Assembly (NCBI GenBank): GCA_964016885.1
Contig: OZ024743.1
Span: 352,098,001-352,162,000 of the forward strand
Length of the DNA stretch: 64,000 nucleotides
Origin: Eledone cirrhosa
Lineage: Eukaryota
Reading direction: 5' to 3'
Part shown: positions 4,050 through 30,583 of the stretch, one piece after another
Layout of the letters: every line of letters starts with the position of its first letter
Position numbering within the stretch: the first letter of the stretch is position 1
Program-made: the position numbers and the translations under genes
The notes under the pieces: model-generated
Database searches by the model: none
Seen by the model: the letters and a program-made list of their open reading frames with translations, nothing else
Told to the model about the DNA's origin: nothing

Positions 4050-4904
4050 TTTCCAAATTGAAGGATGAGTATTTAAAACTTTATTTTATCATGAGTTAAG
4101 GCTCTATTGATTTTTCCCTGGATTTCACTAAATTCTGTTGGATGAATCTATATCCTGATTCTTTTTGAATTGAGTTTGAATTATTTTTCCCGCATCTTAC
4201 GTTAACTATTTTCCCATTTTGACGCTATAGTCACTTATATATTATGAAATACTGTGTGCTCCTTGCTCATAATAATTTCTATACTTTTCATTTATATTTA
4301 TACTCGGATTTCTTTCCTAGAGTGCTTAAATTATTTGTGACTAATCCTGGTCTTTTTTTTTAAAAACCGCGATAATATTGCTTTTTCTGAACTCCTTATT
4401 GTAGAGTTTTTTTCGGAATGTTTGTGACTGTTATTTCATGTAAACAAACATATGTCTCATTCTGACGTCACCAGCCCTGTCTCCACATGTGCGTTTTATT
4501 TTCATAATTACGCATGATGTTGAACTAGCCTGCTTTTAAATTCCCTTTCTGGCATATTATAATCAGTGAGATTTTGGTTATCGTGTTGAGCTCTGCTGAT
4601 GATCTAATCCAACCGTGACCATCACCACTGAAAGTTTCGTGAAATAGTCTTTTCAAGACTATACAGAGCATTTGTAGTTTTTCCAAATTGAAGGATGAAT
4701 ATTTTAAACTTTATTTTATCATGAGTTAAGGCTCTATTGATTTTTTCCCTGGATTTCACTAAATTCTGTTAGATGAATCTATATCCTGATTCTTTTTGAA
4801 TTGAGTTTGAATTAATTTTCCCACATCTTACGTTAACTATTTTCCCATTTTGACGCTATAGTCACTTATATATTATGAAATACTGTGTGCTTCTTGCTCA
4901 TAAT
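4050..4904. repeat. ~224-bp direct repeat pair (4050-4273 and 4680-4904)
   Basis: tttccaaattgaaggatga...cttgctcataat is present twice with few substitutions; the second copy abuts the PLE RT fragment. Confidence 0.9.
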
Positions 4905-5003
4905 GGAAAGAATTACATCCAAATTAGAGGCACAGCGATGGGAACGAAGTTTGCTCCCGTTTACGCGACCTCTGTAATGGGATACTTAGAACAACAACTC
5001 TAC
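4902..5003 (+). pseudogene. Penelope-like element RT, upstream piece (motif B'), interrupted by the rDNA cassette
   Basis: NGKNYIQIRGTAMGTKFAPVYATSVMGYLEQQLY fits the PLE Q..GTAMG...AP.YA motif; abrupt switch to GC-rich IGS at 5004. Confidence 0.88.
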
Positions 5004-8000
5004 CGAGAAAGTTCGCAACCCGCCGGCGAGGCGTATCCGCCGCCGCCGACCCGTAGGGTTGCGCAACGCCTGCGGGGAATACCACCGAGTAGGGATTTTG
5101 CAGCACGGCCAGGGGGTCCTGTCTATTATATAGGGTAGGCTTGATCGGACGAGCTCGAAGAAAACGATTCCGGGTGCTACCCGTCGAGAGTCGTGAATAT
5201 TCCGTTTTCAAGACGGGTACGTGCCGGCTTACCCTATGCTATGTCGGATGTCTCCGCCTCGACGACATGCCGTCTAGAACTCGTCCGCCCCGCCTGCACG
5301 TTAACGCCCGCTCTCCGCCTCCGCTCCGTATTCCGCCTCCGATGCGTGTTTCCGCCGTTAAGGCGTGCCAAGTTGGCCGCCTCCGACCCGTGTGGCTGCA
5401 GGGGAATCCAGCCGATGACGACGCCCGGACGGCGGCGTGGTGTTGCTTGGTCGATGCGACGACAACACGCCGCCAACTTGCCTCCTTCGGGGAGGCCCCG
5501 TGTAGACGGCGGAAAGAAATCCATTTCGCCGGCTAAGCGGTTCCGCCGCCGACCCGTACTTTTACGAGTAGCTGCCGGGAAAGACAGGCGGCAAGACGGC
5601 GTGTATACGCGAAGCGAGGCGAAGCTCCCCGACGCGACACGACGCCTTCCGTCTTCCGCCTCGAACCCGGCAAACGTTCCTTTATTCGTCCACGCCTTCA
5701 CGCTTCGATCGTGGAAAGAAATCCAATCCGCCGGCTAGGCGGTTCCGCTGCCGACCCGTACTTTTACGAGTAGCTGCCGGGAAAGACAGGCGGCAAGACG
5801 GCGTGTATACGCGAAGTTCCGCCACGCGACACGACGCCTTCCGTCTTCCGCCTCGAACCCGGCAAACGTTCCTTTATTCGTTCTCGCCTTGCCGCTTCGA
5901 TCGCGAGAAAGTTCGCAACCCGCCGGCGAGGCGTATCCGCCGCCGACCCGTAGGGTTGCGCAACGCCTGCGGGGAATACCACCGAGTAGGGATTTTGCAG
6001 CACGGCCAGGGGGTCCTGTCTATTATATAGGGTAGGCTTGATCGGACGAGCTCGAAGAAAACGATTCCGGGTGCTACCCGTGTGGCTGCAGGGGAATCCT
6101 CCCGATGACGACGCCCGGACGGCGGAAAGAAATCCATTCCGCCGGCTAGGCGTTTCCGCCGCCGACCCGTACTTTTACGAGTAGCTGCCGGGAAAGACAG
6201 GCGGCAAGACGGCGTGTATACCCGTCGCGAGGCGAAGTTCCGCGACGCGACACGACGCCTTCCGTCTTCCGCATCGAACCCGGCAAACGTTCCTTTATTC
6301 GTCCACGCCTTCCCGCTTCGATCGCGGAAAGAAATCCAATCCGCCGGCTAGGCGGTTCCGCTCCCGACCCGTACTTTTACGAGTAGCTGCCGGGAAAGAC
6401 AGGCGGCAAGACGGCGTGTATACGCGAAGTTCCGCGACGCGACACGACGCCTTCCGTCTTCCGCCTCGAACCCGGCAAACGTTCCTTTATTCGTTCACGC
6501 CTTCTCGCTTCGATCGCGAGGAAGTTCGCAACCCGCCGGCGAGGCGTATCCGCCGCCGACCCGTAGGGTTGCGCAACGCCTGCGGGGAATACCACCGAGT
6601 AGGGATTTTGCAGCACGGCCAGGGGGTCCTGTCTATTATATAGGGTAGGCTTGATCGGACGAGCTCGAAGAAAACGATTCCGGGTGCTACCCGTTGAGAG
6701 TCGTGAATATTCCGTTTTCAAGACGGTTACGTGCCGGCTTACTCTATGCTATGTCGGATGTCTCCGCCTCGACGACATGCCGTCTAGAACTCGTCCGCCC
6801 CGCCTGCACGTTAACGCCCGCTCTCCGCCTCCGATGCGTGTTTCCGCCGTTAAGGCGTGCCAAGTTGGCCGCCTCCGACCCGTGTGGCTGCAGGGGAATC
6901 TAGCCGATGACGACGCCCGGACGGCGGCGTGGTGTAGCTTGGTCGATGCGACGACAACACGCCGCCAACTTGCTTCCTTCGGGGAGGCCCCGTGTAGACG
7001 GCGGAAAGAAATCCATTCCGCCGGCTAGGCGGTTCCGCTGCCGACCCGTACTTTTACGAGTAGCTGCCGGGAAAGACAGGCGGCAAGACGGCGTGTATAC
7101 GCGAAGCGAGGCGAAGTTCCCCGACGCGACACGACGCCTTCCGTCTTCCACCTCGAACCCTGCAAACGTTCCTTTATTCGTTCACGCCTTCTCGTTTCGA
7201 TCGCCAGAAAGTTCGCAACCCGCCGGCGAGGCGTATCCGCCGCCGACCCGCAGGGTTGCGCAACGCCTGCGGGGAATACCACCGAGTAGGGATTTTGCAG
7301 CACGGCCAGGGGGTCCTGTCTATTATATAGGGTAGGCTTGATCGGACGAGCTCGAAGAAAACGATTCCGGGTGCTACCCGTTGAGAGTCGTGAATATTCC
7401 GTTTTCAAGACGGGTACGTGCCGGCTTACTCTATGCTATGTCGGATGTCTCCGCCTCGACGACATGCCGTCTAGAACTCGTCCGCCCCGCCTGCACGTTA
7501 ACGCCCGCTCTCCGCCTCCGATGCGTGTTTCCGCCGTTAAGGCGTGCCAAGTTGGCCGCCTCCGACCCGTGTGGCTGCAGGGGAATCCAGCCGATGACGA
7601 CGCCCGGACGGCGGCGTGGTGTAGCTTGGTCGATGCGACGACAACACGCCGCCAACTTGCTTCCTTCGGGGAGGCCCCGTGTAGACGGCTGAAAGAAATC
7701 CATTCCGCCGGCTAGGCGGTTCCGCCGCCGACCCGTACTTTTACGATTAGCTGCCGGGAAAGACAGGCGGCAAGACGGCGTGTATACGCGAAGCGAGGCG
7801 AAGCTCCCCGACGCGACACGACGCCTTCCGTCTTCCGCCTCGAACCCTGCAAACGTTCCTTTATTCGTTCACGCCTTCTCGTTTCGATCGCCAGAAAGTT
7901 CGCAACCCGCCGGCGAGGCGTATCCGCCGCCGACCCGTAGGGTTGCGCAACGCCTGCGGGGAATACCACCGAGTAGGGATTTTGCAGCACGGCCAGGGGG

Positions 8001-8803
8001 TCCTGTCTATTATATAGGGTAGGCTTGATCGGACGAGCTCGAAGAAAACGATTCCGGGTGCTACCCGTTGAGAGTCGTGAATATTCCGTTTTCAAGACGG
8101 GTACGTGCCGGCTTACCCTATGCTATGACGGATGTCTCCGCCTCGACGACATGCCGTCTAGAACTCGTCCGCCCCGCCTGCACGTTAACGCCCGCCCTCC
8201 GCCTCCGATGTGTGTTCCGCCTTTAAGGGGCGTGCCCAGTTGGCCGCCTCCGACCCGTATGGCTGCAGGGGAATCCAGCCGCCGATGATGACGCCCGAAC
8301 GGCAGCGTGGATAAGCTTGGTCGTCGTCGTCGACGCGACGACAACACGCCGCCAACTAGCTTCCTTCGGGGAGGCCCCGTGTAGACGGCGGAAAGTAATC
8401 GAATCCGCCGGCTAGGCGGTTCCGCCGCCGACCCGTACTTTTGCGAGTAGCTGCCGGGAAAGAGATGCGGCAAGACGGCGTGTACACGCGACACGACGCC
8501 TTCCGCCTTCCGCCTCGTACCCGGTAAACGTTCCGCCGTTGATGCGTGCCGAGTCGGCCGCGTCCGACCGGCGGTGGCTGCAGGGGAATCCAGCCGACGA
8601 CGACGCCCGAACGGCGAAGTGGTGTAGCTTCGCCGGCGACACGCCGCCTTCTATCTCTCTAGCCATTCTAGGTCCCGCATCGACAGCGGGACCGAAGCCA
8701 ACCCGCCGTCTAGGCGGTTCCGCAGCCGACTCGTGGCGGGCGGATCGCCCTTGGGGGATTTGCAACGATTCCGGAGGATGCAGCACGGCCAGGGGCTCCT
8801 GTC
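5004..8803 (+). repeat. rDNA IGS subrepeat array with duplicated spacer promoters (includes 687-bp repeats)
   Basis: GC-rich modular repeats. Motif cagcacggccagggggtcctgtcTATTATATAGGG has its TATT at 5124, 6021, 6634, 7321 and 8008; spacing 6634-7321-8008 is 687 bp. Confidence 0.9.
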
Positions 8804-8820
8804 TATTATATAGGGTAACC
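8780..8820 (+). promoter_or_regulatory. putative RNA Pol I gene promoter / transcription start of 45S pre-rRNA
   Basis: Last copy of the repeated TATTATATAGGG motif (8804-8815) before the sequence diverges into the unique 5'ETS; resembles TATATAGGG-type Pol I initiation sites. Confidence 0.65.
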
Positions 8821-10925
8821 TCGGTCGAACGAGCTTAGTGAACGGAAGGGTGTTAGCCGTTGCAGCTTTCGGTTTACTGCGTAGGTTACGGGTTAGGCGT
8901 GTTCGGATACCCTATATGCGATGTCGTCATCGTCCACGACCCGCCCTCACGTTACAGCCCGTACACGCCGCCATCGACGAATTATTGCCTTTACAGACCG
9001 CCGCCGTCCGACCGGACCCACGATAGAAGACGTTCGTTACCGCTGGAGCAACGCAAATTACTCCTAGGTTGACGCCAACAACGAGCGCCTTCCCGTCCGG
9101 GCGACGTAAAAGTTCTGAAAGCCTTTTTCGCCGAACCTCCTCGCGCCGCCTTTTCCTCGCCTATTCTTTTTTCTTTTTTCTCCTTTTCGACGGCTAGCCG
9201 CATTTCGTGACCCGCCTTTCGATTGCGCTTCCGTCGCGGCAAAAGAATTGCCTTTTCAGACCGCCGCCGCCGTCGCCCGACCGGACCCACGATAGAAAAC
9301 GTTCGTTACCGCCGGAGCAACGCAAATTACTCCTCGGTTGACGCAAAAAAACGAACGCCTTCCCGCCCGGTCGGCGTAAAATGTCTGAAAAACCTTTTCG
9401 CCGAACGCCTCGCCGCTTCCTCCTCGCCTCTTTTTTTTTTTTTTTTCGGTCGTTCGCTCGCTCGCTCGCCGACCCTCGGCCTCGACGATTATCCACCTTC
9501 CGAACGACCGCCTTTCCGCCGTCACAGCAGTAGGTACGCGTCCGTCGTAATAGCCGTCATTTTCATGTAGGAGCAACGCCTAAATGCCCTGCAATGCGTT
9601 TGACGACGATCTACGACGGCGACGACGCGCGTCACTCTTCCTTGCTGCGACGAAGACGCTCGTTACCGCTGGAGCAACGCAAATTACTCCTAGGTTGACG
9701 CCAAAAAACGAACGCCTTCCCGCCCGGTCGGCGTAAAATGTCTGAAAAACCTTTTCGCCGAACGCCTCGCCGCTTCCTCCTCGCCACTTTTTTTTTTTTC
9801 GTTCGTTCGCTCGCTCGCCGACCCTCGGCCTCGACGATTATCCGCCTTCCGAACAACCGCCTTTCCGTCACAGCAGTAGGTACGCGTCCGTCGTAATAGC
9901 CGTCATTTTCATGTAGGAGCAACGCCTAAATGCCCTGCAATGCGTTTGACGACGATCTACGACGGCGACGACGCGCGTCACTCTTCCTTGCTGCGACGAA
10001 GGTTTTCGTTCGGCTTTTCGTCGTGGACCCGGTCAGGTCATGCCGCTGACCTCGCGTTGCGTCGCCACTGCTGCGGCGGGCTTGGGTATAGCCGTAGCTA
10101 CCCTCGTTTTGCCAACGGCGACGCGATATCTATGAAAGAAAGCGGCGTCGTCCCTCCCGAAGGGACACTGGCATCAAGTCCGGGTGTCCCTGCTTGCGCC
10201 GCTGCCTTTTATCGGGTCAGCGTCGTCCAAGTTTGCCCCGGCATACCTAGCCGTTAGGTTACGCGACGGCGGCGCTTTTCGCGTCGTCGTCGTCGTCTTC
10301 CTAACTCTCTTCCGTTGACCGCATTCCGCCGCCATGTCGAACCGATTTCTTTTTTCGTCGCAGTAACGGCGACAGCAGCTGTTGAATCGAAAGCGGAGGG
10401 CGCCGCCGCCGCCTACTTGTCTCTCTCCTCTTCTTCGAGGCCGCATGCTGCTGCCGCCCCGGCATCACGCCTCAGCTCGCACTTACGCCCAGGGAAACGC
10501 TTCCGAAAGCGGCTTCGTGCGATGCCATAGGATTGTAAACCGTCTTGCGAGCTCGTTTTCGTTTGTTTCTTTTCTTTTCTTTCATCGCCGCCGCCGAGGA
10601 GGAGGAAGAAGACTAAACGATTGGCCGGCAGTCGGCGGGCGATTTGTTTTCGTATACGCCCGTTTTTTGTCGACGACGTCGCTGGGAGAGGAGATGATCT
10701 GATTAGATTAGTAAATGTCGCCAAACGCGCAGCGCCGCGTCCTTCTTCTTTTCTCTTCGTTTCTTACCTCCACCGGCTCGTGGACCGGTTGCCGACATTT
10801 CCGTATTTTTTTTTTTTTTTGTTACGTTTTCTCATTCCGCCTACAAACGAGACGAGACGAAATTCGCTGCTGCCGCCTCCATGCGCTTCTGTTCTCGGTC
10901 GTCGTTTTGTATTTCGTGCGGAAGA
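8811..10925 (+). other. 5' external transcribed spacer (contains a 346-bp duplication in this copy)
   Basis: Lies between the putative start site and 18S; the 5' boundary is inferred. Confidence 0.65.
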
Positions 10926-12798
10926 TACCTGGTTGATCCTGCCAGTAGTCATATGCTTGTCTCAAAGCTTAAGCCATGCAAGTGTAAGTTCATGCCGTAA
11001 ACGAATGGTGAAACCGCGAATGGCTCAGAAACCGGACCTAATCCTCGGGACCGTATTCCTCACCGCGAGGAGAGTGGATAACTGTGGCAATTCTAGAGCT
11101 AATACATGCAACTGAGGCCGCGATCGCAGGTCGCACCCGGGAGTCGGGTTACAAACGCGCTCAGCGTTCCATCGCTGTCGTCGTTCCGTCTTCCCGCGCG
11201 GTCCCAACAGATCGCGTCGACACGGTCGGCCTTTGCATTGGTCGCGGCGCAAATATTAGACTGAGACCGACGACGCGTTAGATGCCGTCAGCGCCGTTCG
11301 CAGTTCGCTGCGTGCCGGTTGCGCGGTGTCGCGCATCAATTCGACTTTGGTGACTCTGGATAACTGTCAGTACGATCGCACGGGCTTAGAATCGCTTCTG
11401 GCCTTCGCGCGACGGGTCCCCCGCGAGTCCGCCCTATCAACTGTCGACGGCCCGGTAAGTGCCGACCGTGGTGGCAACGGGTAACGGGGAATCAGGGTTC
11501 GATTCCGGAGAGGGAGCATGCGAAACGGCTACCACATCCAAGGAAGGCAGCAGGCGCGCAAATTACCCACTCCCGGCACGGGGAGGTAGTGACGAAAAAT
11601 AACGACGCGGGACTCTGTCGAGGCCCCGCGATCGGAATGAGTACACTTCAAATCCGTTAACGAGGATCGACCGGAGGGCAAGTCTGGTGCCAGCAGCCGC
11701 GGTAATTCCAGCTCCGGTAGCGTATATTAAAATTGTTGCGTTTGAAAAGCTCGTAGTCGGAATTCGGGTCTCGAAAGCGCGCTGCGTCGTCAGCGCGTTC
11801 GGGGCGACGGCGCCGTTGTCGTTCGCGCGCCGCGCGTCGACTTCGGTCGTCCGTTCGCACTCCCGGCCCTATTCGCCGGTGCGTGCGCGGTCGGGCCGCA
11901 GAGCTCTGCGTGCATCGCCGCTCGGCGTCACGGTGCGGACGTCGCGTTTTTACCTTCTTGCCACGCTTCTTGCCGTTCTTCTTGCCTATTTTCCTTTCCG
12001 CGTTCGGGGACGATGCGACGACGGCGCTTTTGCTTTATCGCGGGCGTTTGCCGTTCGCCTCTCGTTTTCGTTGCGGCGCTCCGGTCAGGGTTTGGAGTGT
12101 CGTCTCGCTTGGCTATTCGGTCGGTTCTTACGTCGTCGTGCCGTCACCTCGCCGCGGTCGCGCGTTCACCTCGCGGTTTTGTTTTTCTCTCCCTGCGCGT
12201 TTGCCTTTTTCTTTTCGAAAGGAGAGGTTCGTCGTCGCCAGGGTTGGATACGACGGCGTGATCGGTTTCGTCGTCGCGTCGTCTCGGCGCGTCGCTTTCC
12301 TGCGGCCGCCGTTTTGTCGTCGCGCGCGTCGTTCCGTTTCGCCGCCGATCCGCACGGTTCCTCCGAGGGTGCTCTTTACCGAGTGTCCGAGGCGGCCGGT
12401 ACGTTCACTGTGAAAAAATTAGAGTGCTCAGAGCGAGCCGCACCGGCTTGCATACGAAAAGCATGGAATGATGGAAAATGGCCTCGTCCGCGCGTCATCC
12501 GTCGGTCTCCGTTCACGACGAGGCAATGATCGAAGGGAGCGATCGGGGCCACTCGTATTGCGACGTTAGAGGTGAAATTCTTGGATCGTCGCAAGACGCA
12601 CTGCAGCGACGGCGTGTGGCAAGCACGTTTTCCTCGATCAAGAGCGAAAGTCGGAGGTTCGAAGACGATCAGATACCGTCGTAGTTCCGACCGTAAACGA
12701 TGCCGACTGGCGCTCCGCCGGCGTTCGCTTCGATGACCCGGCGGGGAGCCTGCGCGGGAAACTATAGTCGGTTCCGGGGGGAGTATGGTTGCAAAACA

Positions 12799-12844
<46 letters not shown>

Positions 12845-13553
12845 GCGGCTTAATTTGACTCAACACGGGAAAACTCACCCGGTCCGGACACCGGTAGGAT
12901 TGACAGATCGATAGCTCTTTCTCGATTCGGTGGGTGGTGGTGCATGGCCGTTCTTAGTTGGTAGAGCGATCCGTCTGGTTGATTTCGATAACGAACGAGA
13001 CTCCGGCCTGCTAACTAGCGCGTCGATTAGTGCTTTTCCGGTAGCATGGCGGCGCCGAAGCCGTCGTCGGTAAGCTGTCCTGCGTTCGTTTTTTTTCCCT
13101 TTTTCTTCGAGCTCGGGCTTCCGTTGCCGTTGCCGTCGTCGTCGCGTCGTCGTCGTCTTCTTCTTTCGCGAGTTCGCTTGCGGAATGGAGGAATGAAGGC
13201 AGCGCTGGCGGAGGCGGCGGTCGGTTTTTCGGGCTCGGGAGGGGGGGACCGGCGCGATCAGCCCCGGCGTCGGCACGTCGTCGCGTCCGGGCCAGTCGGT
13301 TGGCGAACGCAGCGCTTCTTAGAGGGACGGGCGGCAGAAAGCCGCACGAGGCGGAGCGATAACAGGTCTGTGATGCCCTTAGATGTCCGGAGCCGCACGC
13401 GCGCTACACTGGAGGTATCAGCGGGCGCCACTCCCCCGGCCCGAGAGGGTCGGGAAACCTCTGAACCACCTCCCGTGATAGGGATCGGGGCCTGGAACCA
13501 ACCCCGTGAACGAGGAATTCCCGGTAGGCGCGGGTCATCAGCCCGCGTCGATC

Positions 13554-13596
<43 letters not shown>

Positions 13597-13739
13597 CGAA
13601 CGGTCCGGTGAGGTCCTCGGATCTGGCCGACGAGTTCGCAGGCCGTGCGGCGGCGTTTCGATTCGGCCGTCAGGTCGGTTCGTTGCCGTCGTCGGTGCGC
13701 TCTCTGATGGCCCGGAGAAGACGACCGAACCCGATCGCT

Positions 13740-13797
<58 letters not shown>
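10926..13797 (+). rRNA. 18S rRNA: 18S rRNA (2872 nt, large V2/V4/V7 expansions)
   Basis: Starts tacctggttgatcctgccag; contains gtgccagcagccgcggtaa and aaacttaaaggaattgacgg; ends gtaggtgaacctgcggaaggatcatta. Confidence 0.98.
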
Positions 13798-14328
13798 CCG
13801 CGTATATTATCGTTTATTGCCGACGCTGCCGCCAAACGAAAGCCGCCTTATTTTCGTTATTCGATGATCACAACAACGGTCGGGTTCGTCATCTGAAGAC
13901 GCCTAGCAGACGGCGTAACCCGTTAAATGGAGCGAGCGCCGTTTTGCGAAATCGCCGCCAATATCGCTTACTGCGCGTCTACAGCCGCCTAAACCGCTCC
14001 TACCGTTATTTTTTTTTCTTTTGCCGGCGCCAGCACGGCGCTCGGCTGATAACATTTGCGCATCGTTCGATTTCGTATCCGAAAGAACGTATTTTTTCGA
14101 CGTGCCCTTCTTATTTTTCTCCTCCTCTCACCTCGCCCGCGGAAGCAGCAAAGCAGCCAGCAGCAGACAAACCGCAGCGAGCAGCGAACGTGAAAACCTC
14201 CCGTGAATAACGTCGCTGTCGCCGCCGCCGCCGTCCTCCGCCATCGTCTACCGTTGGTTGTTTCTATGCTTTCGCGTTCATTTTACCGTGTTTTTTTTTT
14301 TCGTTTTCGTTTTCGTTTAAAATTGACA
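13798..14328 (+). other. ITS1
   Basis: Between the 18S 3' end and the 5.8S 5' end. Confidence 0.85.
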
Positions 14329-14490
14329 AAACCCTGGACGGGGGATCACTCGGCTCGTCCGTCGATGAAGAGCGCGGCTATCCGCGTGAACTGATGCGAA
14401 TTGCAGGACTCAGTGAACATCGACACCTCGAACGCACATTGCGGCCCCGGGATTCCACCGTCCCGGGGCCCCGTCCGGTCGAGAGGCGGT
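14329..14490 (+). rRNA. 5.8S rRNA: 5.8S rRNA
   Basis: ggatcactcggctcgtccgtcgatgaaga...gcgaattgcagga...gaacgcacattgcggcccc; ends approximate. Confidence 0.95.
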
Positions 14491-15022
14491 CACGATACAA
14501 TCGCGATGTCTGCTGTTTCGCCATGCGCCGCCCGCTCACGAGAGTGAGAGATGAAAGAGAGAAACACATCCGCCTTTTGCGCTGCTGCCGCTGCCCGCCT
14601 TAGCGAAGCGCAGTTTCTTTTCTTTTTCTCTTCTCTTTTGCGCCATGGTAACAGCGGGAAGTCGGGAGTCGCAGAAGAAGCGAGAGTCGTCGCTCGCGGA
14701 ACGCTCCGCTTCGGAGATCGTCGCACGGAAAGAGAAAGATTTAGAAGAAGGGAAGACGAGAAGGGTAAAAAGAAACGCAGTAACACAGGCGCGGTCGTTG
14801 TTCGTCGGCCGGCGTTCGCTCTGCGAGTCGCCAAAAACACAAAGCGTTCGTGTCGGCCGACGAGAAACGATTTCGATGCCGCTTCTTTTTTTCCCATTTC
14901 TCTCGTCTTTTCCACATTCCGCCTTGGCGCCCGCTCTATATCGCCAACCTCTTCTTTATCAATGCCGCCTTCTTCTTACCGTCCTCGTTCTTCGTATTCA
15001 GCGTATTCGGCGTATGCGAATA
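14491..15022 (+). other. ITS2
   Basis: Between 5.8S and 28S; 64 bp shorter than in copy 2. Confidence 0.85.
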
Positions 15023-16517
15023 GCTGCCCTCGACTCGGACGCGACTACCCGCCGAACTTAAGCATATCGCTAAGCGGAGGAAAAGAAACCAACCGGGATT
15101 CCCTTAGTAACGGCGAGTGAACTGGGAGGAGCCCAACGCTGAATCTCGTCGTCCGCAAGCAGGCCGTCGAGAGCTGTGGCGCAAGGGTCGTACACGGTCG
15201 TTCGTTTCGCCCGGCTAGGTTCGGAGTCCCCTCGATCGGGGCTGCCCAAAGCGGATGCCAGGCCCATTCGGAGCCGGCGGCGGTCGACAGTGTCTCTTTC
15301 TTCGGCCCGAGAGTCGGGTTGCTTGGGAACGCAGCCCAAAGCGGGTGGTAAGCTCCATCCAAGGCTAAATACCGGGACGAGTCCGATAGCCGACAAGTAC
15401 CGCGAGGGAAAGTTGAAAAGAACTTTGGAGAGAGAGTTCAAGAGACCGTGAAACCGCCCAGGGGTTAAACGGGTAGGACCGTTCACCGCGATCGCGAGGG
15501 GACTCAGTCCGCTGCTGTTTTAAGGCGCCGTCGTCGTCGGCGGCGGTCTCTCGTTTCGACGAGTCGACCGCCGACCGCCTCGCCGGCGTTACGATTCGCA
15601 GGGTGCCGGCATCGGACGCACTTCCCCTTCGATCCCTCGTCGCGACCCGTTCCCGTCAGGCTGGATGGCGCGCGGTGTCCGCAGGTCGCAGAGCGGCGTC
15701 CCGCCTAGAAAACGAACCATTCCCGGTTCGCTTTCGAAGCGGGTTTCCGAAAACAGCGCTTCTCTCGACCGGGCCCGTCGCTCGGCGGTGGTTTTCATCG
15801 TCCCAGGCACGGCTAACAGGCGGGGACGGGACAAACGCGCGTGTTCCTTTATTAGCCGCAGCGCCGTTCGTATATGCTTAGGTTGGTTTTTTTAAATATC
15901 CTTTAAAATTTCTGATCGGCTTTCGAGAAAGCGGCCGCCTCGTTCGCTCGCCCCGTTTGCTTTTTCTCTTTTGCTCTCTTTGCGGAGCAGGAGGGAGCGG
16001 GTCGCTGGGCGGACGAGGATCGCGAGCCGTCCGCTGCTGCAGGTCTGCGACGAGCATCGGCAACCTACCCGACCCGTCTTGAAACACGGACCGAGGAGTC
16101 CCAGTCGGTTGCGAGTCGTTGGAGCGAAAGAAATCGAATTTAACGAACTCCGACGGCGAAGTGAAAGCGAGAACGTGACGCGTCGTCGACGGCGGCGTTA
16201 GAGGCTGGTTTGAATTGACGGCATGCGGCATGGCCTTCGGGTCGTGTCGCTGTTGTTTTTTTCTTCTTTTTTCCGCGCCGTCGTAGGCGTTTCGAAGCAT
16301 CGTTCCCGGGTCGGGTGTGCGCGTCGCGTGGCGGCTTTCGGGCCGTCGGCGCGGCGCGCTCCGACTCAGGTGTAGCAGGCGGCCGGGGACCCGAAAGATG
16401 GCGATCCACGCCCGGTCGGGACGAAGCCAGAGGAAACTCTGGTGGAAGTCCGAAGCGCCTCTGACGTGCAAATCGATCGTCGGAACCGGGTGTAGGGGCG
16501 AAAGACCAATCGAGCCG

Positions 16518-16560
<43 letters not shown>

Positions 16561-18582
16561 CGCCAGCAGCAGACAGAACGACACGCAATTCCGTCCGGTA
16601 AAGCGAACGACTGGAGGCCCCGGGGACGTTGACGGCCTCGATCTACTCTCGAACTCGGAACGGGCGAAACGGGCCGCTCTCTCTCCCGATCGGAGGCGGC
16701 CGCCGTCTCGGCGACGAATGCACGGTGCCAAGTGGGCCACTTTTGGTAAGCAGAACTGGTGATGTGGGATGAACCGAACGTCCGGCTAAGGTGCCCTACG
16801 CTTCGCCCATTAGATCCCCGAAAGGGTGTCGGTCGATATAGACAGCAGGACGGTGGCCACGGAAGTCGGAATCCGCTCAGGAGTGTGTAACAACTTACCT
16901 GCCGAATCGACCGGCCCCGAAAATGGATGGCGCTGGAGCGAGCGACCGATGCCGGACCGGCCAGGCGATAGGCGAAAAAAGGTAACACGACGTAACTTTC
17001 TTCGATGCCTGGTCGAGTAGGAGGGCGCCGCGGCGTGCACGGAAGCCGCGGGCGTGAGCCGGGGTGAAGCCGACCGCGGGTGCAGATCTCGGTGGTAGTA
17101 GCAAATATTCGAACGAGACCTTCGAAGACCGAAGTGGAGAAGGGTTCCGTGCCAACGGCGGTCGAGCACGGGTCAGTCGGTCCTAAGAAGCGGGCGAAAG
17201 CTTGTACGAAAGGCGCCGGATCCGTTGTCGAGAAAGAGGAAAAAAAAAGAAAAAAACCCCTTTTTTTTTTTTGGCTTCTCTGTTTTTGTTACGGCCGGCC
17301 TTGCATCGAAAGGGAATCGGGTTAATATTCCCGAACCCGTACTCGGAGAGTGCTCGTCCGTCGGTGGAATTTAACGCGTCGTCGCGTCATCGAAGCCGGC
17401 GGTCGGGCGAAGCAGCGGCAACGCAAGCGAGCCCGGAGACGTTGCCGGGAGCCCTGGGAAGAGTTCTCTCTTCTTCGTAAAGGACCGCGTCCGTGGAATC
17501 GGCTCGTCCGGAGATACGGATATGGTACCTGTAGAGCGCCGCGTCTCGGGCGGCGTCCGGTGCGCTCTCGGCGGCCCTGGAAAATCCGGGTCCGTAACGA
17601 TTCGCAGCTCTCGAGTCGGTCCGTACCCACCATCCGCAGCAGGTCTCCAAGGTGTACAGCCTCTCGTCGATAGCGCCAATGTAGGTAAGAGAAGTCGGCA
17701 AAATGGATCCGTACCTTCGGAAGAAGGATTGGCTCCGAGGACCGGGTCGGTCGGGCCGTGTGTGTGTCGGCCTGTCGGCCGTCTTGTTGTTTTTTTCCAA
17801 AAACTCGGGATCGGTCGCGCGGCACGTCTGTACGCGAAGCGGTGAACCGGTACGGGGCTGTAGCGTTGGCGTCGGACTTGACGTTCGAGCGTCGGTCGGG
17901 TGGTCGATTTGCGCCCGTTTCGTTTGCGTTCGTTTCGTTTTTCCTTGCCCTTCTTTCGGTTGGCGGCGAGGAGAGAGAGGAAGAAGGCGGCGGCGGCGGC
18001 TGCGGGTTGGTCGCGCGGAGGCGGACGGGGTTTGTTGAAAGATTACCGCGGAGGAGGGATGAAGGCGTAGCAGTAGACGGGGGGAGAGGCTTGTCGCTCG
18101 CAAGGGCGGTTTGTTTTTTTTTTCGTTTTTCTGCTCGCTTTTGTTTTGTTCTTTCGGTTTTTTTTTCTCTTTCCTTTACTGTTCGTCGCAGTGCCGGCGG
18201 CTCGCGCGTCGTCGTCGTCTTTTTTTCTTCGTTTTCTTCGTTTTTGTCGGTCGGAAACAAAAACGGGGGGCTTGGAGAGGCGCTAGCTTGGCGTTGGCGA
18301 GCGGCGTTTCGGTCGGTTGCTTTTTGCGACGTTCGATGCGTAGTGGGCGCGAACAACACGGCTCCACGCCCGGGACACCGTGGAGCGACACGGTTTCGGG
18401 CTCGTTGGCGCGTCGGTTAGCTTCCTTTCTTTCTTGTTCGCGAGGAGGAGGGCGGTTGCCGAGACGCGCGGCAGGCGTTCGGCCGGCGGCGAACGGTCAA
18501 CTCGAAACTGGTACGGACCGGGGGAATCCGACTGTCTAATTAAAACAGAGCATCGCGTAGCCGGCCGAGCCGCATAGACGCG

Positions 18583-18614
<32 letters not shown>

Positions 18615-18630
18615 AGTGAAGAAATTCAAC

Positions 18631-18660
<30 letters not shown>

Positions 18661-18669
<9 letters not shown>

Positions 18670-18882
18670 GTCGGCGCTACCCTTGACGTGGGAAGAGAGC
18701 TTAAATCCGTGGTTAGAGCTGTACGAGTGAGTCAACTTGACGCGTACCTTTGGAAGTTTGACTCCTTTCGGAGGTTGGCGCCCTCTTCGAGGGGTCGGTT
18801 CCGGGGTGCGGGTTCGGGTTGGCTCGGCAGGTTTTACCATACTCGGTTGGTCTGCCACATTAAGGATGAACTAATTGGCGCC
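18661..18882 (+). ncRNA. HDV-like self-cleaving ribozyme fold spanning the 28S/insert 5' junction
   Basis: P1 ctctctt(18663-69)/aagagag(18693-99); P2 ggcgcta(18673-79)/tggcgcc(18876-82); P3 ccc(18680-82)/ggg(18690-92); 7-nt L3 ttgacgt; P4 base atcc/ggat plus gtgg/ccac; J4/2 aCtaat. Folded by eye. Confidence 0.75.
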
Positions 18883-19828
18883 TAAATTATGATTGTAATA
18901 ATTATATAAAAATCATATATCCGTACGGTAGCTGGGGGCCGTTTTAAAACCAGTAACCGAGGGGTCGGGATGGGCCCCTTAGGTTTACTAACTGCAGCGG
19001 GCCGCTGTGGTGGCTCCATGATCATTACAGCGAACGTGATGGGATGTGGAGTCGCCGTGGTGGCTTGCTGTGGTACTTAACCACCCTCGAGGGCTGACAG
19101 GGAGCCGGGATACGCCCTCTGGATTAGAGCCGGCTCAAACCTTTTTTTTTTTTTTTTTTTTTGTCCTTGTTTTTTTTTGTGTGGGCGCGGAAGTGCCTGG
19201 AAACTCTCTTCCTAGTTTTTTTTTTTTATTAACTCGGTGAGCGGTCGGATATAATATCCGAGAAGGAAAAGTAAGACGTCTCCGCCGTTCCGCTAGTCTG
19301 GTGGTTCGCCTTGGGAAAGCGATAGAACCACCTTATCCCCCCGTTGCAGGGTTACGCGTTGCTTAAAGGAAAGTGCTTTTTTTTATTATTAACAGTTTCG
19401 TTAATAATATTTTAGGAATAGGAAGGGAGTGATGAAATGGCTTCTGGAGCGCCCCACAACTTTTTTTATTTTTTTTTTATAGAGTACAATGTACGGCCAG
19501 GGAGTTTGGAGCCTCCCTGTGCGGGATTCCGGCAACAGGATCTCCGCGCGGGGTTCGGTTCCGGTTGCTTACTTGGTGCGTACAACCAAGTAAGCAACCG
19601 GGAGGGCTTAGTGTCTCGCATGGCTCGCTCGCTGAGGTGGCTCCCAGCCAGCCCCCGCGGGGTCCATGGCTTGGCCTGCTCTCTTGGCGTGACCAACCAA
19701 ATTTGACAGGGCACGCCGTTCATGCCATAGTTTGCTTGATGACGTTGGCCCGTGGGACCACCCACTTTAAAAAAAAGGGAAAGGCGGCTTATACTTTGCA
19801 AAAAGTATAAGTTAATAGCCAGCTAAAA
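18670..19828 (+). mobile_element. 1159-bp ORF-less insertion at the R2 target site (putative non-autonomous R2 derivative, SIDE-like)
   Basis: Canonical 28S gactctcttAAGGtagccaaatg reads gactctctt[insert ending gctaaaa]tatccaaatg here. The 3' junction is at the R2 first-strand nick, AAGG is lost, there is no TSD and no RT ORF, and the 5' end folds as an HDV-like ribozyme. Confidence 0.88.
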
Positions 19829-19831
19829 TAT

Positions 19832-19868
<37 letters not shown>

Positions 19869-19903
19869 CGGATCAACGAGATTCCCACTGTCCCTATCTA
19901 CTG

Positions 19904-19938
<35 letters not shown>

Positions 19939-19944
19939 CGGATC

Positions 19945-19985
<41 letters not shown>

Positions 19986-20555
19986 TTTTGTGAGGGCACA
20001 CGGTAGGCGTAGCATAGGCGGGAGCAATCTTGCGTCTCTCGGCTGGCGGCAGCGTCGTTTGCGGGTCGCTTGCGGCTTTGCGGCGGCGTTCGCCGTCTGT
20101 CGGGTACCGTGCGCGTTTGCGTCGATGAAAAACCGCCACTTCCGTAGTTTCTTCGCTCACTCGATTGAGAAGGGACGGGGCCGTCGCCGAGCGGTGGTTC
20201 ATTTATCTGGTGCGAAGCGTGCGGTGCATGTCGCGCGCGCACACGTTGTGCGCCGACGCAGCCGATGCGCGACCCTTAGTCGAGAACAGTGTCGGTCGGG
20301 GAGTTTGACTGGGGCGGTACGTCTGTCAAAGGGTAACGCAGGTGTCCCAAGGCGAGCTCAGCGTGGACGGAAACCACACGTTGAGCAAAAGGGCAAAAGC
20401 TCGCTCGATCTCGATTTTCAGTACGAATACGGACCGCGAAAGCGTGGCCCATCGATCCTTTCCGAATAGCGGCGAGCTATGCGTCCGCCGAGAGGTGTCA
20501 GAAAAGTTACCACAGGATAACTGGCTTGTGGCGGCCAAGCGTTCGCAGCGACGTC

Positions 20556-20593
<38 letters not shown>

Positions 20594-21682
20594 CGAAGCA
20601 GAATTCGCAAAGCGTTGGATTGTTCACCCACTAACAGGGAACGTGAGCTGGGTTTAGACTGTCGTGAGACAGGTTAGTTTTATCCTACCGATGCATTGCG
20701 TGTAGGCGGCGGCGGTGGCGGCTGCAGCCACCTTCTCGAAGGCGGCTGCGGTCGGCGTCGCCGCCGGCAACGTCAACTCGGCTACGGCTATCCCGTCCAG
20801 TACGAGAGGAACCGCGGGATCAGAGCAACGGTTTGCGCGCTCGCTCGATAGAGCGGTGGTGCCAGGCTGCCTCTGAGCGATAACGGCTGAACGCCTCTAA
20901 GCCGGAACCGTAGCCGGACCCGAGTTGTTTTTCGAAAGCGTCTCAACCTTCTTAAGGCGCATGCCTTAGTTTGGCGATTGCCGTCCGTTCGGCGAAGTCG
21001 CTTCCCTTTTCGGGGTGCGCGTCGTCGTCGGCGGCAGCGTCAGCGGAATTGCCATTCTGTGACGATTACGACGATTCGTCGTCGTTGTCGTCCGTTCGAT
21101 TTGTCGAAAGAGATCGAGACGAAAAGGATCGCTTGTATACGACTCGACTTGCCGTTCGGAGTGACGTGCTTAGTAGAGCAGCTACCACACTGCGATCTAT
21201 TGAGTCTCTTCTCACGAACGACACGATCCGCCCACCGAGGCGGCAGACACCAAAAAAAAAAAAAGAAATTTGAAAAGCGGCTAAGGAAGGAAGGAACGAA
21301 CGAACGAGAGATAGCAGCAGCAGCAGCAGCAGCTAGCGGGTTGGAGCAATGACTCGGTTTTCTTTCGACGGGTTAGCGTAGCAACAATGACGACGACAAC
21401 ATACAAACAAGTCCGCTCCTTAGCCGCCGCCAATTGTTAGGTTCGTTCTTTATTACACTTCCACCGCTGCTACTGCAAACCACCAACCACTTTCCGCGCG
21501 CCAACTTTTACGACGATTTCGCTCGCTCGCTCGCCGCTCGTTTGCCAGGTTGCGCCAACGACCCTCAAGGTCGATTAGCATCGAAAATAGAGAGAGTTCG
21601 CGGTGAATGCGACACAGCCTTGGTTCGAGTGCCGCCGATCCGTCTTCCGAGTTGGTTATTTTTGCGTGTGTTACACGTAGCC

Positions 21683-22150
21683 GCCGCCCATCCGTCGTCC
21701 GAGTTGGTTAGTTATGTTTGACGTGTAGCAGGCGGATTCTGTTTTGTGTGTGTGTCTGTGTGTGATACAAGCCGCCCATCCGTCGTCCGAGTTGGTTAGT
21801 TATGTTTGACGTGTAGCAGGCGGCGGATTCTGTTTTGTGTGTGTGTCTGTGTGTGATACAAGCCGCCCATCCGTCGTCCGAGTTGGTTAGTTATGTTTGA
21901 CGTGTAGCAGGCGGCGGATTCTGTTTTGTGTGTGTGTCTGTGTGTGATACAAGCCGCCCATCCGTCGTCCGAGTTGGTTAGTTATGTTTGACGTGTAGCA
22001 GGCGGATTCTGTTTTGTGTGTGTGTCTGTGTGTGATACAAGCCGCCCGTCTTCCAAGTTATGTTTTAAGTGTAGCCGATGGTGTGTGTGTCTGTGTGTGA
22101 TACAAGCCGCACATCCGTCGTCCGTCTTCCAAGTTATGTTTTACGTGTAG
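21683..22150 (+). repeat. 88-91-bp tandem repeats downstream of 28S (candidate Pol I terminator / fork-barrier array)
   Basis: Units gccgcccatccgtcgtccgagttggttag...gtgtgtgatacaa start at 21683, 21771, 21862 and 21953, then degenerate from 22041. Function inferred from position only. Confidence 0.85.
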
Positions 22151-24411
22151 CTGGCGGAAAGAAATCCAATCCGCCGGCTAGGCGGTTCCGCCTCCGACCC
22201 GTACATTTACGAGTAGCTGCCGGGAAAGACAGACGGCAAGACGGCGGCGTGTATACGCGAAGTTCCCGACGCGACACGACGCCTTCCGTCTTCCGCCTCG
22301 AACCCGGCAAACGTTCCTTTATTCGTTCACGCCTACCCGCTTTGATCGCGGAAAGAAATCCATTCCGCCGGCTAGGCGGTTCCGCCGCCGACCCGTACAT
22401 TTACGAGTAGCTGCCGGGAAAGACAGACGGCAAGACGGCGGCGTGTATACGCGACGCGAGGCGAAGTTACAAGACGCGACACGACGCCTCCGTCTTCCGC
22501 CTAGAACCCGGCAAACGTTCCTTTATTCGTCCACGCCTTCCCGCTTCGATCGCGAGAAAGTAATCAATCCGCCGTCGAGGCGGTTCCGCCGCCGACCCGT
22601 AAGCTTACGGGTCGGCAGCGGGGAATACGACCGTCCAGGGCCTTTGCAGCACGGCCAGGGGGTCCTGTCTATTATATAGGGTAAGCTTGATCGGACGAGC
22701 TCGAAGAAAACGATTCCGGGTGCTACCCGTTGAGAGTCGTGAATATTCCGTTTTCAAGACGGGTACGTGCCGGCTTGCACTATGCTATGTCGGATGTCTC
22801 CGCCTCGACGACATGCCGTCTAGAACTCGTCCGCCCCGCCTGCACGTTAACGGCCGCCCTCCACCTCCGCTCCGTCTTCCGCCTCCGATGCGTGTTCCGC
22901 CGTTAATGCGTGCCCAGTTGGCCGCCTCCGACCCGTGTGGCTGCAGGGGAATCGAGCCGATGTCGACGCCCGGACGGCGGCGTGTTGTAGCTTGGTCGAC
23001 GCGACGACAACACGCCGCCAACTTGCTTCCTTCGGGGAGGCCCCGTGTAGACGGCGGAAAGAAATCCATTCCGCCGGCTAGGCGGTTCCGCCGCCGACCC
23101 GTACTTTTACGAGTAGCTGCCGGGAAAGACAGGCGGCAAGACGGCGTGTACACGCGACACGAAGCCTTCCGCCTCGTACCCGGTAAACGTTCCGCCGTTG
23201 ATGCGTGCCGAGTCAGCCGCGTCCGACCCGTGGTGGCTGCAGGGGAATCCAGACGAACGGCGAAGTGGTGTAGCTTCGCCGACGACACGCCGCCTTCTAT
23301 CTCTCTAGCCATTCTAGGTCCCGCATCGACAGCGGGACCGAAGCCAACCCGCCGACTAGGCGGTTCCGCAGCCGACCCGTGGCCGGCGGATCATCCTTGG
23401 GGGATTTGCAACGATTCCGGAGGATGCAGCACGGCCAGGGGGTCCTGTCTATTATAGAGGGTAAGCTTGATCGGACGAGCTCGAAGAAAACGATTCCGGG
23501 TGCTACCCGTTGAGAGTCGTGAATATTCCGTTTTCAAGACGGGTACGTGCCAGCTTACCCTATGCTATGTCGGATGTCTCCGCCTCGAACGACATGCCGT
23601 CCAGAACTCGTCCGCCCCGCCTGCACGTTAACGCCCGCGCTCCGCCTTCCCCCAGCGATGCGTGTTCCACCGTTAAGGCTTGCCCAGTTGGCCGCCTCCG
23701 ACCCGTGTGGCTGCAGGGGAATCCAGCCGATGACGACGCCCGGACGGCGGCGTGTTGTGACTTGGTCGACGCGACGACAACACGCTGCCAGCTAGCTTCC
23801 TTCGGGGAGGCCCCGTGTAGACGGCGGAAAGAAATCTATTCCGCCGGCCAGGCGGTTCCGCCGCCGACCCGTACATTTACGAGTAGCTGCCGGGAAAGAC
23901 AGACGGCAAGACGGCGTGTATACGCGAAGCGAGGCGAAGTTCCCCGACGCGACACGACGCCCTCCGTCTTCCGCCTCCGACCCGGCAAACGTTACTTCAT
24001 TTGTCCACGCCTTCCCGCTTCGATCGCGGAAAGAAATCCATTCCGCCGGCTAGGCGGTTCCGCCGCCGACCCGTACTTTTACGAGTAGCTGCCGGGAAAG
24101 ACAGGCGGCAAGACGGCGTGTATACGCGAAGCGAAGCGAAGTTCCCCGACGCGACAGGACGCCTTCCGTCTTCCGCCTCGAACCCGGCAAACGTTCCTTT
24201 ATTCGTTCACGCCTTCCCGCTTCGATCGCGGAAACAAAACCATTCCGCCGGCTAGGCGGTTCCGCCGCCGACCCGTACTTTTACGAGTAGCTGCCGGGAA
24301 AGACAGGCGGCAAGACGGCGTGTATACGCGAAGTTCCGCCACGCGACAGGATCCATTCCGTCTTCCGCCTCGAACCCGGCAAACGTTCCTTTATTCGTTC
24401 TCGCCTTGCCG
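22151..24411 (+). repeat. rDNA IGS subrepeats with two spacer promoters (22670; variant TATTATAGAGGG at 23450)
   Basis: Same modules as 5004-8803; ends abruptly at ...tcgccttgccg 24411. Confidence 0.9.
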
Positions 24412-25435
24412 AGTACTGACTTTAGAAAGTACATTGAAAAATCTTGGAAGAGATACCTTGACGACTGTTTCATCATCTGGACAGAATCTCTAGATACTCT
24501 GGATGAGTTCAATATCCTCCTGAATAACCTAGACTCATCTCTCCAATTCACAAAAGAGATGAGTAGGACCAAATTACCATTCCTAGATATAATGATAATC
24601 AAAAACGACACCACCATTACCACGGATATATATTATAAACACACAGACACCCATCAATATCTGAATTTTATGTCGTGCCATCCACCTCATACAAAACGCA
24701 ACATCCCATACTGCCTAGCCAGAAGAATTTGTACCATTGTAGAAGATACGAATACCAAGTACAAACGCCTAACAGAACTAAGAGAATTTTTGCTCAAACA
24801 AAAATACCCATCTCTACTTATAGAAAATGGCATACAGCGGGCTATAAAAATACCTATACAACAACTTAGAACAACCCAAGGAAGAAGAAACCAAGAACTG
24901 GTCAGACCATTTATAATGACACACAACCCATGTCACCAGAATATATTCAACACTGCCAAAGCAAACCTACCGATCATTGCTCAAAGTAATGAATTAAAAG
25001 GCTTAATCACAGATCGATCTTTGACTCTTAGTAAAAGACAGAGAAAAAATTTGAAGCAATGATAATCGATGCGGCACATGTCAATCCAAACAGGCCGGTC
25101 AATATATGAAAACAAAAACTGGAAAAATATTCCCAAATGCAATTATGAACTGCAAAAGCAGAAATCTAATTTACTGCATTAAATGCCCGAATTGTGAAGA
25201 ACTATATGTCGGTCAAACTGGAAATGCACTATCGGAACGTGCACGGGTACACCGTCAACAAATCAGAGACCCAAATGTCCGTCAGATACCCCTAAGCGGC
25301 CACCTGGCAACATGTGGTCAGGGAATATTTATAATATTCCCATTCTACAAATTACACAGCCCAAGTGAAATCAAGAGAAAAATCAAAGAAAATAATTTTA
25401 TTGATAAATTCAAACCCAAGCTAAATGAACAATAA
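24412..25435 (+). pseudogene. Penelope-like element RT (YLDD motif, thumb) plus GIY-YIG endonuclease, downstream piece, with an internal break near 25060
   Basis: WKRYLDDCFIIW, LPFLDI, IYYKHTDTHQYLNFMSCHP, KRQRKNLK; then RCGTC...NCKSRNLIYCIKCPNCEELYVGQTG...RARVHR (GIY-YIG with Cys linker, Neptune-like). Confidence 0.93.
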
Positions 25436-25770
25436 TAACGCCTAGGGATATTATTTCTACTACCACTATGACCACGACCACTAACAACAACCACAACAAC
25501 AATAATAATAATAATAAAAGTGATGTTGATGGTGATGATTAATAGAAAATGCTATTTTCATCATTTCAAAAAGCAAAACAATTGATACGTTGGGTATGAC
25601 TATTGGTCGTTAGCATGCTCAACCAGCCGTGACGCTTAAACCAATCAGCTGTAGTAATTCAGTGAAACTACACACTGATTGGTCGAAATACAGTTTACAG
25701 GGCTTTGCATTCCGGGGCCACTTTTCTCTGTATAAAATGTATAAAAGGTAGTAAATTTACCCATCTCATT

Positions 25771-26020
25771 ACAGTTGAAAATTGCAAACTCGACTGTCAC
25801 CACATATCATGAACCTGAAGATTGCGAAAGCATGAAAGTACTTGTTCAATTAACACTTAGAATTTAATATTCTATCATACTATTTCATTATAATACCATA
25901 TTATATTATATATATTTTAAAGGATTGTAAATAAAACGAGTAAATCAGACAAAGTTGGAATTCCTCTTATTAATATAATCTTCTATACACAATCATACAC
26001 ACCCGTGTATATTTACCTAT
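25771..26020. repeat. ~240-bp dispersed repeat, second copy at ~28966-29205
   Basis: acagttgaaa.ttgcaaact.gactgtcaccaca...aatcatacacacccgtgtatattta occurs on both sides of the RTE element. Confidence 0.8.
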
Positions 26021-26744
26021 CTATATCTATATATATATATAGAGAGATTTATATATATGCATACATACACACAAGCACACACACACACACACATTTGCAA
26101 CTCTGCAGCACGTTTATTCTTATATTTACACATATTTTTTCTCCCGCTATGACCCGTCTATTTCGTTCTTACTGCTTCCTCTTTCTCTGTTCTTTACCCT
26201 CTCTAACAGTTACTCTCTCTGTTAGCCTCTTCCTCACCCTTCACTCACTCACTCTCTGTTACTACCTCTCCTCCTCCTCCTTCTTCCCGTTTGACCTGTG
26301 CGTAATTCTTTTCTTTCGCACGCTTGGTCAGGCTGGTTGGCATTTTTTCTCTCTCTCGTCTACGATTTCACAGAACTTATGTTTACCGAATTCACAGACT
26401 AGACCCCTTCTTCCTCCCGTTAGACCTGTGCTAAATTCCTTCCTTGCTCACATTTCAACCAGGTTTGGTGGTCTTTATTCTCTCTCGTTCACGATTTCAC
26501 AGAACTTATATTCATGGAAATTTTTGGACTTGACTCGCTCTTCCTCACTTTTCGTTGCTTCACCATCTTTGTTTGTTTACACTCTCGCTGTTCCCTTTAT
26601 TTACATGTCCCAACGACTTTCTTTTGCTGTTGTTCGCACCAACCGGAGGTATATGGTCTTTAAAGTGAAGAAATACCGATGATGGTTGGAAGATCACTGA
26701 TGAAGGGCCACTTTATTCATATATATATATATATGTGTGTGTGT

Positions 26745-28447: not shown

Positions 28448-28880
<433 letters not shown>

Positions 28881-29205
28881 CAACCAGTAAGACCCCGACG
28901 GCTGAGCTCAAGCCGTTTCGACGGCTAATTCATAATTGTGGTGACAGTCAAGTTTGCAATTTTCAACAGTTGAAAGTTGCAAACTTGACTGTCACCACAC
29001 ATTATGAACCTGAAAATTGCGAAAGCATGGAAGTACTTGTTCAATTAACACTTAACATTTAATATTCTACCATACTATTTCATTCTAATACCATTATAAA
29101 TTTTAAAGGATTGTAAATAAAACGAGTAAATCAGACGAAGTTGGAATTCCTTTTATTAATATAATCTTCTATACTCAATCATACACACCCGTGTATATTT
29201 ATCTA

Positions 29206-30177
<972 letters not shown>

Positions 30178-30520: not shown

Positions 30521-30583
30521 GAGAAAGAGAAAGAGAGAGAGAGAGAGCAGAACAACAGAGAGTAAAAGAGAGAGAGAGAGAGG

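Follow-up and report, generated by a model that had tools for sequence, protein, structure and literature searches.

A circularly permuted 45S ribosomal DNA unit in Eledone cirrhosa, probably inserted from a circle

The window analysed here is a 64,000-nt stretch of Eledone cirrhosa DNA (contig OZ024743.1 of assembly GCA_964016885.1; C4:352.098–352.162 Mb of a 3.0-Gb assembly) in which a 19,408-bp cassette of 45S ribosomal DNA (rDNA) interrupts a Penelope-type retroelement. The cassette is one rDNA unit in circularly permuted order, opened in its intergenic spacer. We consider it likely that one 45S rDNA repeat, which probably left its tandem array as a monomeric circle, was cut once in the spacer and end-joined into a break in the Penelope element; 9 nt of the rDNA and 21 nt of the target were lost. 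Permuted monomers are present at other loci in the same genome, opened at different phases and lying in unrelated targets with small losses on both sides.

A single unit opened in its spacer

Two GC-rich rDNA units stand out from the AT-rich DNA of the window, the second set of 18S, 5.8S and 28S genes following 39 kb after the first. The first unit is organized as follows.

5004..24411, + strand: one 45S rDNA unit of 19,408 bp in circularly permuted order; the opening, in the intergenic spacer, lacks 9 (or 10) nt
5004..8797, + strand: upstream spacer part, with promoter-like TATTATATAGGGT blocks starting at 5118, 6015, 6628, 7315 and 8002 (motif scan)
5881..5920, + strand: intact subrepeat joint, displaying the native phase of both cassette ends
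8798, + strand: last promoter-like TATTATATAGGGT block, the putative gene promoter
10926..13797, + strand: 18S rRNA gene, 2,872 nt, 99.3% identity to the uninterrupted C12 unit
14330..14488, + strand: 5.8S rRNA gene
15025..21231, + strand: 28S rRNA gene, interrupted at the R2 site
18670..19828, + strand: SIDE-like element without an open reading frame (ORF), about 1.16 kb, inserted at the R2 site of 28S
21683..22047, + strand: 91-bp tandem repeats downstream of 28S
22150..24411, + strand: downstream spacer part, with promoter-like blocks at 22664 and 23444 and subrepeats of about 200 bp, terminating in the right-end motif

The TATTATATAGGGT blocks presumably act as promoters, judging from their likeness to RNA polymerase I start motifs. 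The 18S gene (10926–13797) is unusually long, at 2,872 nt compared with 1,831 positions in the Rfam model. The interior of the cassette is colinear with array units, and its 18S and 5.8S genes are 99.3–99.4% identical to the array unit; the 28S gene is interrupted. Because loop-out between tandem repeats leaves no novel circularization junction, none is expected inside the insert. Head-to-tail rDNA units are found on C12, where they adjoin an assembly gap, and the cassette lies on C4 among host repeats, which makes it an rDNA orphon. It does not have the form of a retroposed rRNA pseudogene: it holds spacer, and neither a poly(A) tail nor a target duplication was found at its junctions.

The two ends almost meet in the native spacer. 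TTCTCGCCTTGCCG is present at 5881 and 24398 (45990 and 63636 in the second copy) and CGAGAAAGTTCGCAACC at 5004 and 5904 (45113 and 46013 in the second copy). Across all fetched loci, the right-end motif TTCTCGCC(C)TTGCCG is followed by 9 nt and then by the left-end motif in 64 of 67 occurrences; the other three are cassette right ends, namely this junction and its two copies. The intervening 9 nt read CTTCGATGG in 61 of the 64 and CTTCGATCG in the remaining three and, because both versions occur, the exact letters lost at the cassette join are not fixed. When closed up, the cassette is colinear across the join with the spacer of the rDNA copy at C2:114.07 Mb, which has exactly 9 extra nt, and BLAST tiling gives an identical 9-nt offset at C2:7.58 Mb. 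As the C at 5004 fits Penelope too, the left boundary may be 5005 and the loss 10 nt. In simulations, ends that lie 10 nt or less apart arise by chance with a frequency of 0.4–0.7% if ends are random and 3.2–3.6% if both fall in spacer repeats.

These results agree with a sequence-only reading of the window, which had held that joining the right end to the left recreates normal spacer minus 9 nt. The end sequences that it quoted were all located in the window, at the positions it gave. It had named substantial unique spacer between the two ends as the observation that would count against it, and neither the motif continuations nor alignment to the other copies revealed any. Its further claim, that the end motif is a variant specific to one subrepeat type, holds for the repeat type; however, the motif does not mark a single site, as the C12 array contains 49 copies.

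A Penelope element as the target

The DNA around the cassette is arranged as follows.

4903..5003, + strand: fragment of Penelope reverse transcriptase (RT), 101 bp, bounded on the left by a host duplication junction (4902/4903, overlap of 1 nt) and on the right by the rDNA
24412..26041, + strand: 3′ part of the interrupted Penelope element (RT C terminus, GIY-YIG)
24412..45011, + strand: host segment B, 20.6 kb, AT-rich, with decayed retroelements, co-amplified with the rDNA
45012..63649, + strand: next 101-bp Penelope fragment and second cassette (45113–63649), with identical junctions

Both flanks belong to one Penelope-type element, identified by its RT motifs and GIY-YIG domain, and 100 of the 101 nt on the left match an intact Penelope element at the start of the local array. 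Flank positions 5003 and 24412 are separated by 21 nt in seven intact Penelope copies, which gives a target loss of 21 nt. The recipient site was therefore continuous beforehand and carries a small deletion, as expected for the insertion of extrachromosomal circular DNA (eccDNA), and comparison of the junctions with the seven intact copies revealed no target duplication of the kind that transposons leave. At the left junction 1 nt is shared, inside a 6/7-nt imperfect homology, and the right junction is blunt. Small losses and microhomology or blunt joints without target duplication are the pattern expected of end joining. Elsewhere (L019 and L020), pairs of young Penelope copies lie close together in inverted orientation.

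Permuted copies at other loci

We searched the assembly with 5.8S (37 matches) and added further loci by external transcribed spacer (ETS) and 28S searches; the resulting list of dispersed loci is a lower bound. Both ends could be mapped at 13 other independent dispersed copies of at least 9 kb, which form the tested set. This set leaves out the window locus (owing to ascertainment), the C12 array, short hits and six pieces under 9 kb (C4:341.05, C14:23.8, C7:65.8, C28:48.3, C6:37.0 and C3:346.1 Mb). The copy at C25:23.0 Mb has the same flanks as that at C25:22.1 Mb, so the two were counted once, and the copy at C7:29.3 Mb, the ends of which are unmapped, was counted as a miss in a second test. 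Missing lengths for ends in the spacer are minima over repeat copies and references.

Near-adjacent ends, the permutation expected of eccDNA insertion, are found not only in the window (9 nt) but also at 8 of the 13 other copies, where the ends lie within 300 nt of each other on the circular map. These eight miss 3 nt (C4:236.7 Mb), 20 nt (C2:7.58 Mb), 42–55 nt (C3:366.0 Mb), 67 nt (C2:166.9 Mb), 96 nt (C2:114.1 Mb), 151–171 nt (C1:80.9 Mb), 258 nt (C4:153.4 Mb) and 288 nt (C6:69.6 Mb); the other five (C25:22.1, C3:2.86, C10:26.7, C2:170.2 and C2:251.2 Mb) miss 810 nt or more. Under a null of simulated uniform ends that includes the self-similarity of the spacer, the probability of falling within 300 nt is 0.10–0.13 per copy, and that of 8 or more among 13 is 4 × 10^-5 (9 × 10^-5 with the unmapped C7 locus as a miss). 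Five of the 13 have ends within 100 nt (P = 3 × 10^-4).

Copies opened outside the spacer are the most telling. Among the seven loci with an end in single-copy sequence, three have ends within 300 nt (P of about 8 × 10^-4). They were opened in 18S (11513/11224), in the 5′ ETS and at the 3′ end of 28S (21180/21159), with losses of, in order of size, 20, 67 and 288 nt. Because these openings lie in single-copy rDNA, spacer repetition does not explain them. At two of the three, the flanks rejoin into one repeat element from which about 10 and about 230–240 nt are deleted, accompanying donor losses of 20 and 288 nt, respectively. With the window locus (21 nt of target, 9 nt of donor), the trimming of donor and target looks matched, in three cases only. 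The permuted loci differ in age, at roughly 1–3% substitutions from the array, a rough figure that compares uneven lengths.

Amplification of a 40-kb unit on C4

The rDNA cassette and about 20.7 kb of host DNA form a 40-kb unit that is present three times in tandem. The order is an intact Penelope element and segment B, then three rounds of the 101-bp Penelope piece, rDNA, Penelope 3′ part and B, then unique DNA. As the array opens with intact Penelope and B and closes with B followed by unique DNA, the rDNA entered host DNA and not the reverse. The host duplication junction and the rDNA insertion are 101 bp apart, with the junction on the left.

The copies of B record how the array may have grown. 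All 110 single-nucleotide polymorphisms (SNPs) private to the first copy fall within its first 12 kb, and 16 of the 17 private to the fourth within its last 4.5 kb. This is the distribution that crossovers inside B predict; unequal exchange would produce it, and so would the integration of a composite circle of 40 kb by homology. Judged by private changes (10 and 14 in 1,546 Penelope columns), the first duplication is the older event. The expansion is younger: the window cassette is 28 SNPs and four indels from the other two, with identical junctions, and those two (rDNA copies 1 and 3) differ by 1 SNP. The assembly itself could account for the count of three copies. The two Penelope lineages, with 10 private changes in one and 14 in the other, lend no support to error-prone synthesis at formation.

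Weighing the origin of the cassette

In the explanation that we favour, one unit would leave the array of a germline cell as a circle, looped out by recombination between neighbouring repeats in the manner depicted in PMC10666004. The circle would break once, its ends would be trimmed, and the opened molecule would be captured at a germline chromosome break by non-homologous end joining or microhomology joining. The cassette and its host flank would later have multiplied, by unequal crossing-over or by homologous re-integration of a 40-kb composite circle. On its own, the window locus is modest evidence for a circle; the genome-wide end offsets are the stronger test, and they make it likely that loose rDNA circles re-insert into chromosomes repeatedly. 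The proposal of the sequence-only reading, a monomeric rDNA circle opened once in the spacer and integrated, is supported more by the other dispersed loci than by the one on which it was based. That reading recognized the integrated unit. Four features escaped it: the Penelope element as target, the host junction at a distance of 101 bp, the amplification that followed and the R2-type insert of the 28S gene.

Several points weigh against a circle. Both ends lie in repeats here, a chance match within 10 nt has a probability of 3–4%, and whole spacer subrepeats may have been lost or gained at this locus. Taken alone and with the window locus excluded, the spacer-ended copies are not significant (P of 0.2–0.3), so that decisive weight falls on only three loci, and the uniform-end nulls are our own assumptions. 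Five of the 13 copies are not permuted; one of these (C2:251.2 Mb) has telomere-like repeats at its end and resembles a relic terminal locus, as do the C7 copy with unmapped ends and a C14 piece of 4 kb; and the C2:7.58 Mb copy contains an internal partial duplication. The circles are deduced from integrated copies and none was observed directly. Among the matches listed for four other sequencing runs, no contig or read bridges the right junction, a result that is uninformative about its presence, and the reads at that point follow the native continuations of spacer and of Penelope. The host duplication may have come before or after the rDNA insertion.

Without any circle, a linear piece of the array released by two independent spacer breaks might have been in phase by chance or been copied by template switching. 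The 49 right-end motifs of the C12 array, the wide variation in spacer length among units and the probability of about 0.03–0.04 at this locus given spacer ends are all compatible with such a piece, and the host junction, at a distance of 101 bp, points to a repair event that joined several fragments. However, it would leave unexplained the three other loci opened in single-copy rDNA, the ends of which lie 20, 67 and 288 nt from each other, and the best offsets at all 14 mapped loci fall short of a full unit; we therefore think a linear piece unlikely, although it is conceivable for the window locus taken by itself. An RNA route, in which the Penelope RT jumped onto a read-through RNA polymerase I transcript and back and so copied one unit, is very improbable. 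The same Penelope RT does lie on both sides of the cassette, with a left piece of just 101 bp, but the host duplication junction accounts for that piece, and there is no evident cause for a 19-kb cDNA to end exactly one unit later. Other permuted copies lie in unrelated repeats that are not Penelope targets, which had already disfavoured this route, and every junction lacks a poly(A) tail and a target duplication.

The polarity of the event might instead be reversed: host DNA would have formed the circle, 20.6 kb in size, which opened within Penelope and entered an rDNA array at one of its spacers. The structure of the window is symmetric in this respect, as the ends nearly meet in both segments (9 and 21 nt). 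There are, however, four copies of B and three of rDNA, and the flanks refute the idea: the locus opens with intact Penelope, closes in host DNA and has no bare rDNA neighbours, leaving this reading with almost no probability. We give equally little credence to an assembly artefact, either a chimeric join or a duplicated haplotype. The single SNP between copies 1 and 3 means that the number of copies may be inflated, and the missing bridging read would fit; against this stand the divergence of the window copy from the other two with identical junctions, the ordered crossover pattern in B and the same architecture with different ends at other loci. An integrated rDNA circle thus remains the explanation that we prefer.

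An R2-type insert in the 28S gene

At both its 5′ and its 3′ end, the ORF-less insert in 28S has segments in common with full-length R2-type elements that other copies carry. Because it interrupts the gene, the 28S is probably a defective pseudogene, and the cassette is probably unable to make intact 28S rRNA. A location at the R2 site, no ORF and R2-derived 5′ and 3′ ends are features of an R2 SIDE, and the insert resembles the R2 SIDE of Drosophila as a short ORF-less element with R2-like ends at this site, so far as that element is described in the cited sections of Eickbush and Eickbush 2012 (PMC3414825). The comparison with these sections covers the insert only and not the cassette, and a ribozyme in the insert is at most predicted by analogy. 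Rfam gave no match at the gathering score for the insert and none relevant to a self-cleaving 5′ ribozyme.

The R2 site is spanned by 15 dispersed loci: an R2-type insert, short or long, is present in 14 of them, and in the remaining one the site is altered. Three of the four assembled C12 units likewise carry an insert. Because of these C12 units, an enrichment of inserts among dispersed copies is a hypothesis only. At C2:166.89 (L036), C4:236.75, C10:26.69 and C7:29.29 Mb, the 28S site is occupied by two divergent R2-type families, whose RT regions are about 57% identical in DNA sequence. Some insertions are nested, and one copy has an open frame of 1,214 codons. We rejected site-specific cutting, for example by the R2 endonuclease, as the means of opening, as end phases differ and none is at the R2 site. 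A wider scenario, which we regard as speculative and on balance doubtful, is that germline integrations of rDNA circles form a time series in which R2-inserted units are preferred, the array purging parasitized units that become seeds of new loci, with the C4 locus re-amplifying as a new 40-kb rDNA cluster.

Further rDNA loci

Other rDNA loci have unusual structures. At C12:25.104–25.165 Mb (L008, L088–L093) one spacer consists of about 61 kb of promoter-bearing repeat, compared with 5–16 kb elsewhere. At C2:251.17 (L046), C14:23.82 (L078) and C7:29.30 Mb (L070), all mid-chromosome, spacer-ended rDNA abuts degenerate TAACCC-like repeats; these copies are possibly remnants of once-terminal rDNA loci where chromosomes fused, or else breaks that telomerase healed. 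C25 carries an rDNA monomer at 22.12 Mb (L031–L033) and a dimer at 23.01 Mb (L002, L097, L001, L098 and L003) with the same flanks and ends. The extra unit of the dimer has an array-type insert junction, and the pair suggests homologous addition of one unit to a dispersed copy.

Smaller pieces also occur. An isolated 830-bp spacer piece at C3:346.10 Mb (L060:4361–5190) has ends 63 nt apart in repeat phase and is possibly an integrated mini-circle of one spacer repeat; for a similar piece at C6:37.03 Mb the mini-circle fit fails (152–454 nt). At C28:124.7–125.4 Mb (L061–L064), units of about 36 kb stand in tandem, at least 17 in number. They contain hollowed scraps of rDNA and a match to the histone 3′ stem-loop, and with only these contents a second rRNA type on C28 was rejected. 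Matches at C1:148.2, 75.7 and 62.8 Mb are confined to the 5.8S gene (95–98% identity) and are candidate retroposed 5.8S pseudogenes.

Comparison with known systems

Cytogeneticists have long asked how rDNA arrives at new sites on chromosomes when no rearrangement is visible. Translocations via circles have reportedly occurred at cattle KIT and tilapia vasa. Circle reintegration, although proposed (in the cited parts of PMC3225859), is hard to see in collapsed arrays; permuted monomers supply a sequence-level test, the offset between two ends, for any long-read assembly. About nine loci in this genome, differing in age, satisfy the test, and one of them was amplified again. Searches of titles and the opening parts of abstracts, with subscription papers mostly outside their coverage, found no published report of permuted 45S insertions.

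The closest precedent is eccDNA-mediated duplication, in which a fragment circularizes, is cut elsewhere and reintegrates in permuted order, with cases of 20–130 kb (Takahashi and Innan 2020, PMC7188851, as outlined in the sections cited). The cassette shares the permutation and the state of the target described there. Those sections concern three human cases with ordinary segments as donors, whereas here the donor is the 45S tandem array, and about nine loci are found in one genome; because the donor is a tandem array, the circle junction is invisible in the Eledone copies. For orphons of rDNA and other tandem genes, circle integration has been proposed to form new loci (Cohen et al. 2010, PMC3225859). 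That route is a proposal in the sections cited, and here it is accompanied by the sequences of the junctions, by losses on the donor and target sides and by a statistical test of the end offsets. In rDNA magnification, intrachromatid recombination removes units as circles, which reintegrate in one of the two models (Nelson et al. 2023, PMC10666004, sections cited); such reintegration would be a homologous return to the array, in contrast to the ectopic, non-homologous insertion considered here. The evidence that the cassette and its counterparts provide for a long-proposed route of rDNA dispersal is unusually direct and replicated.

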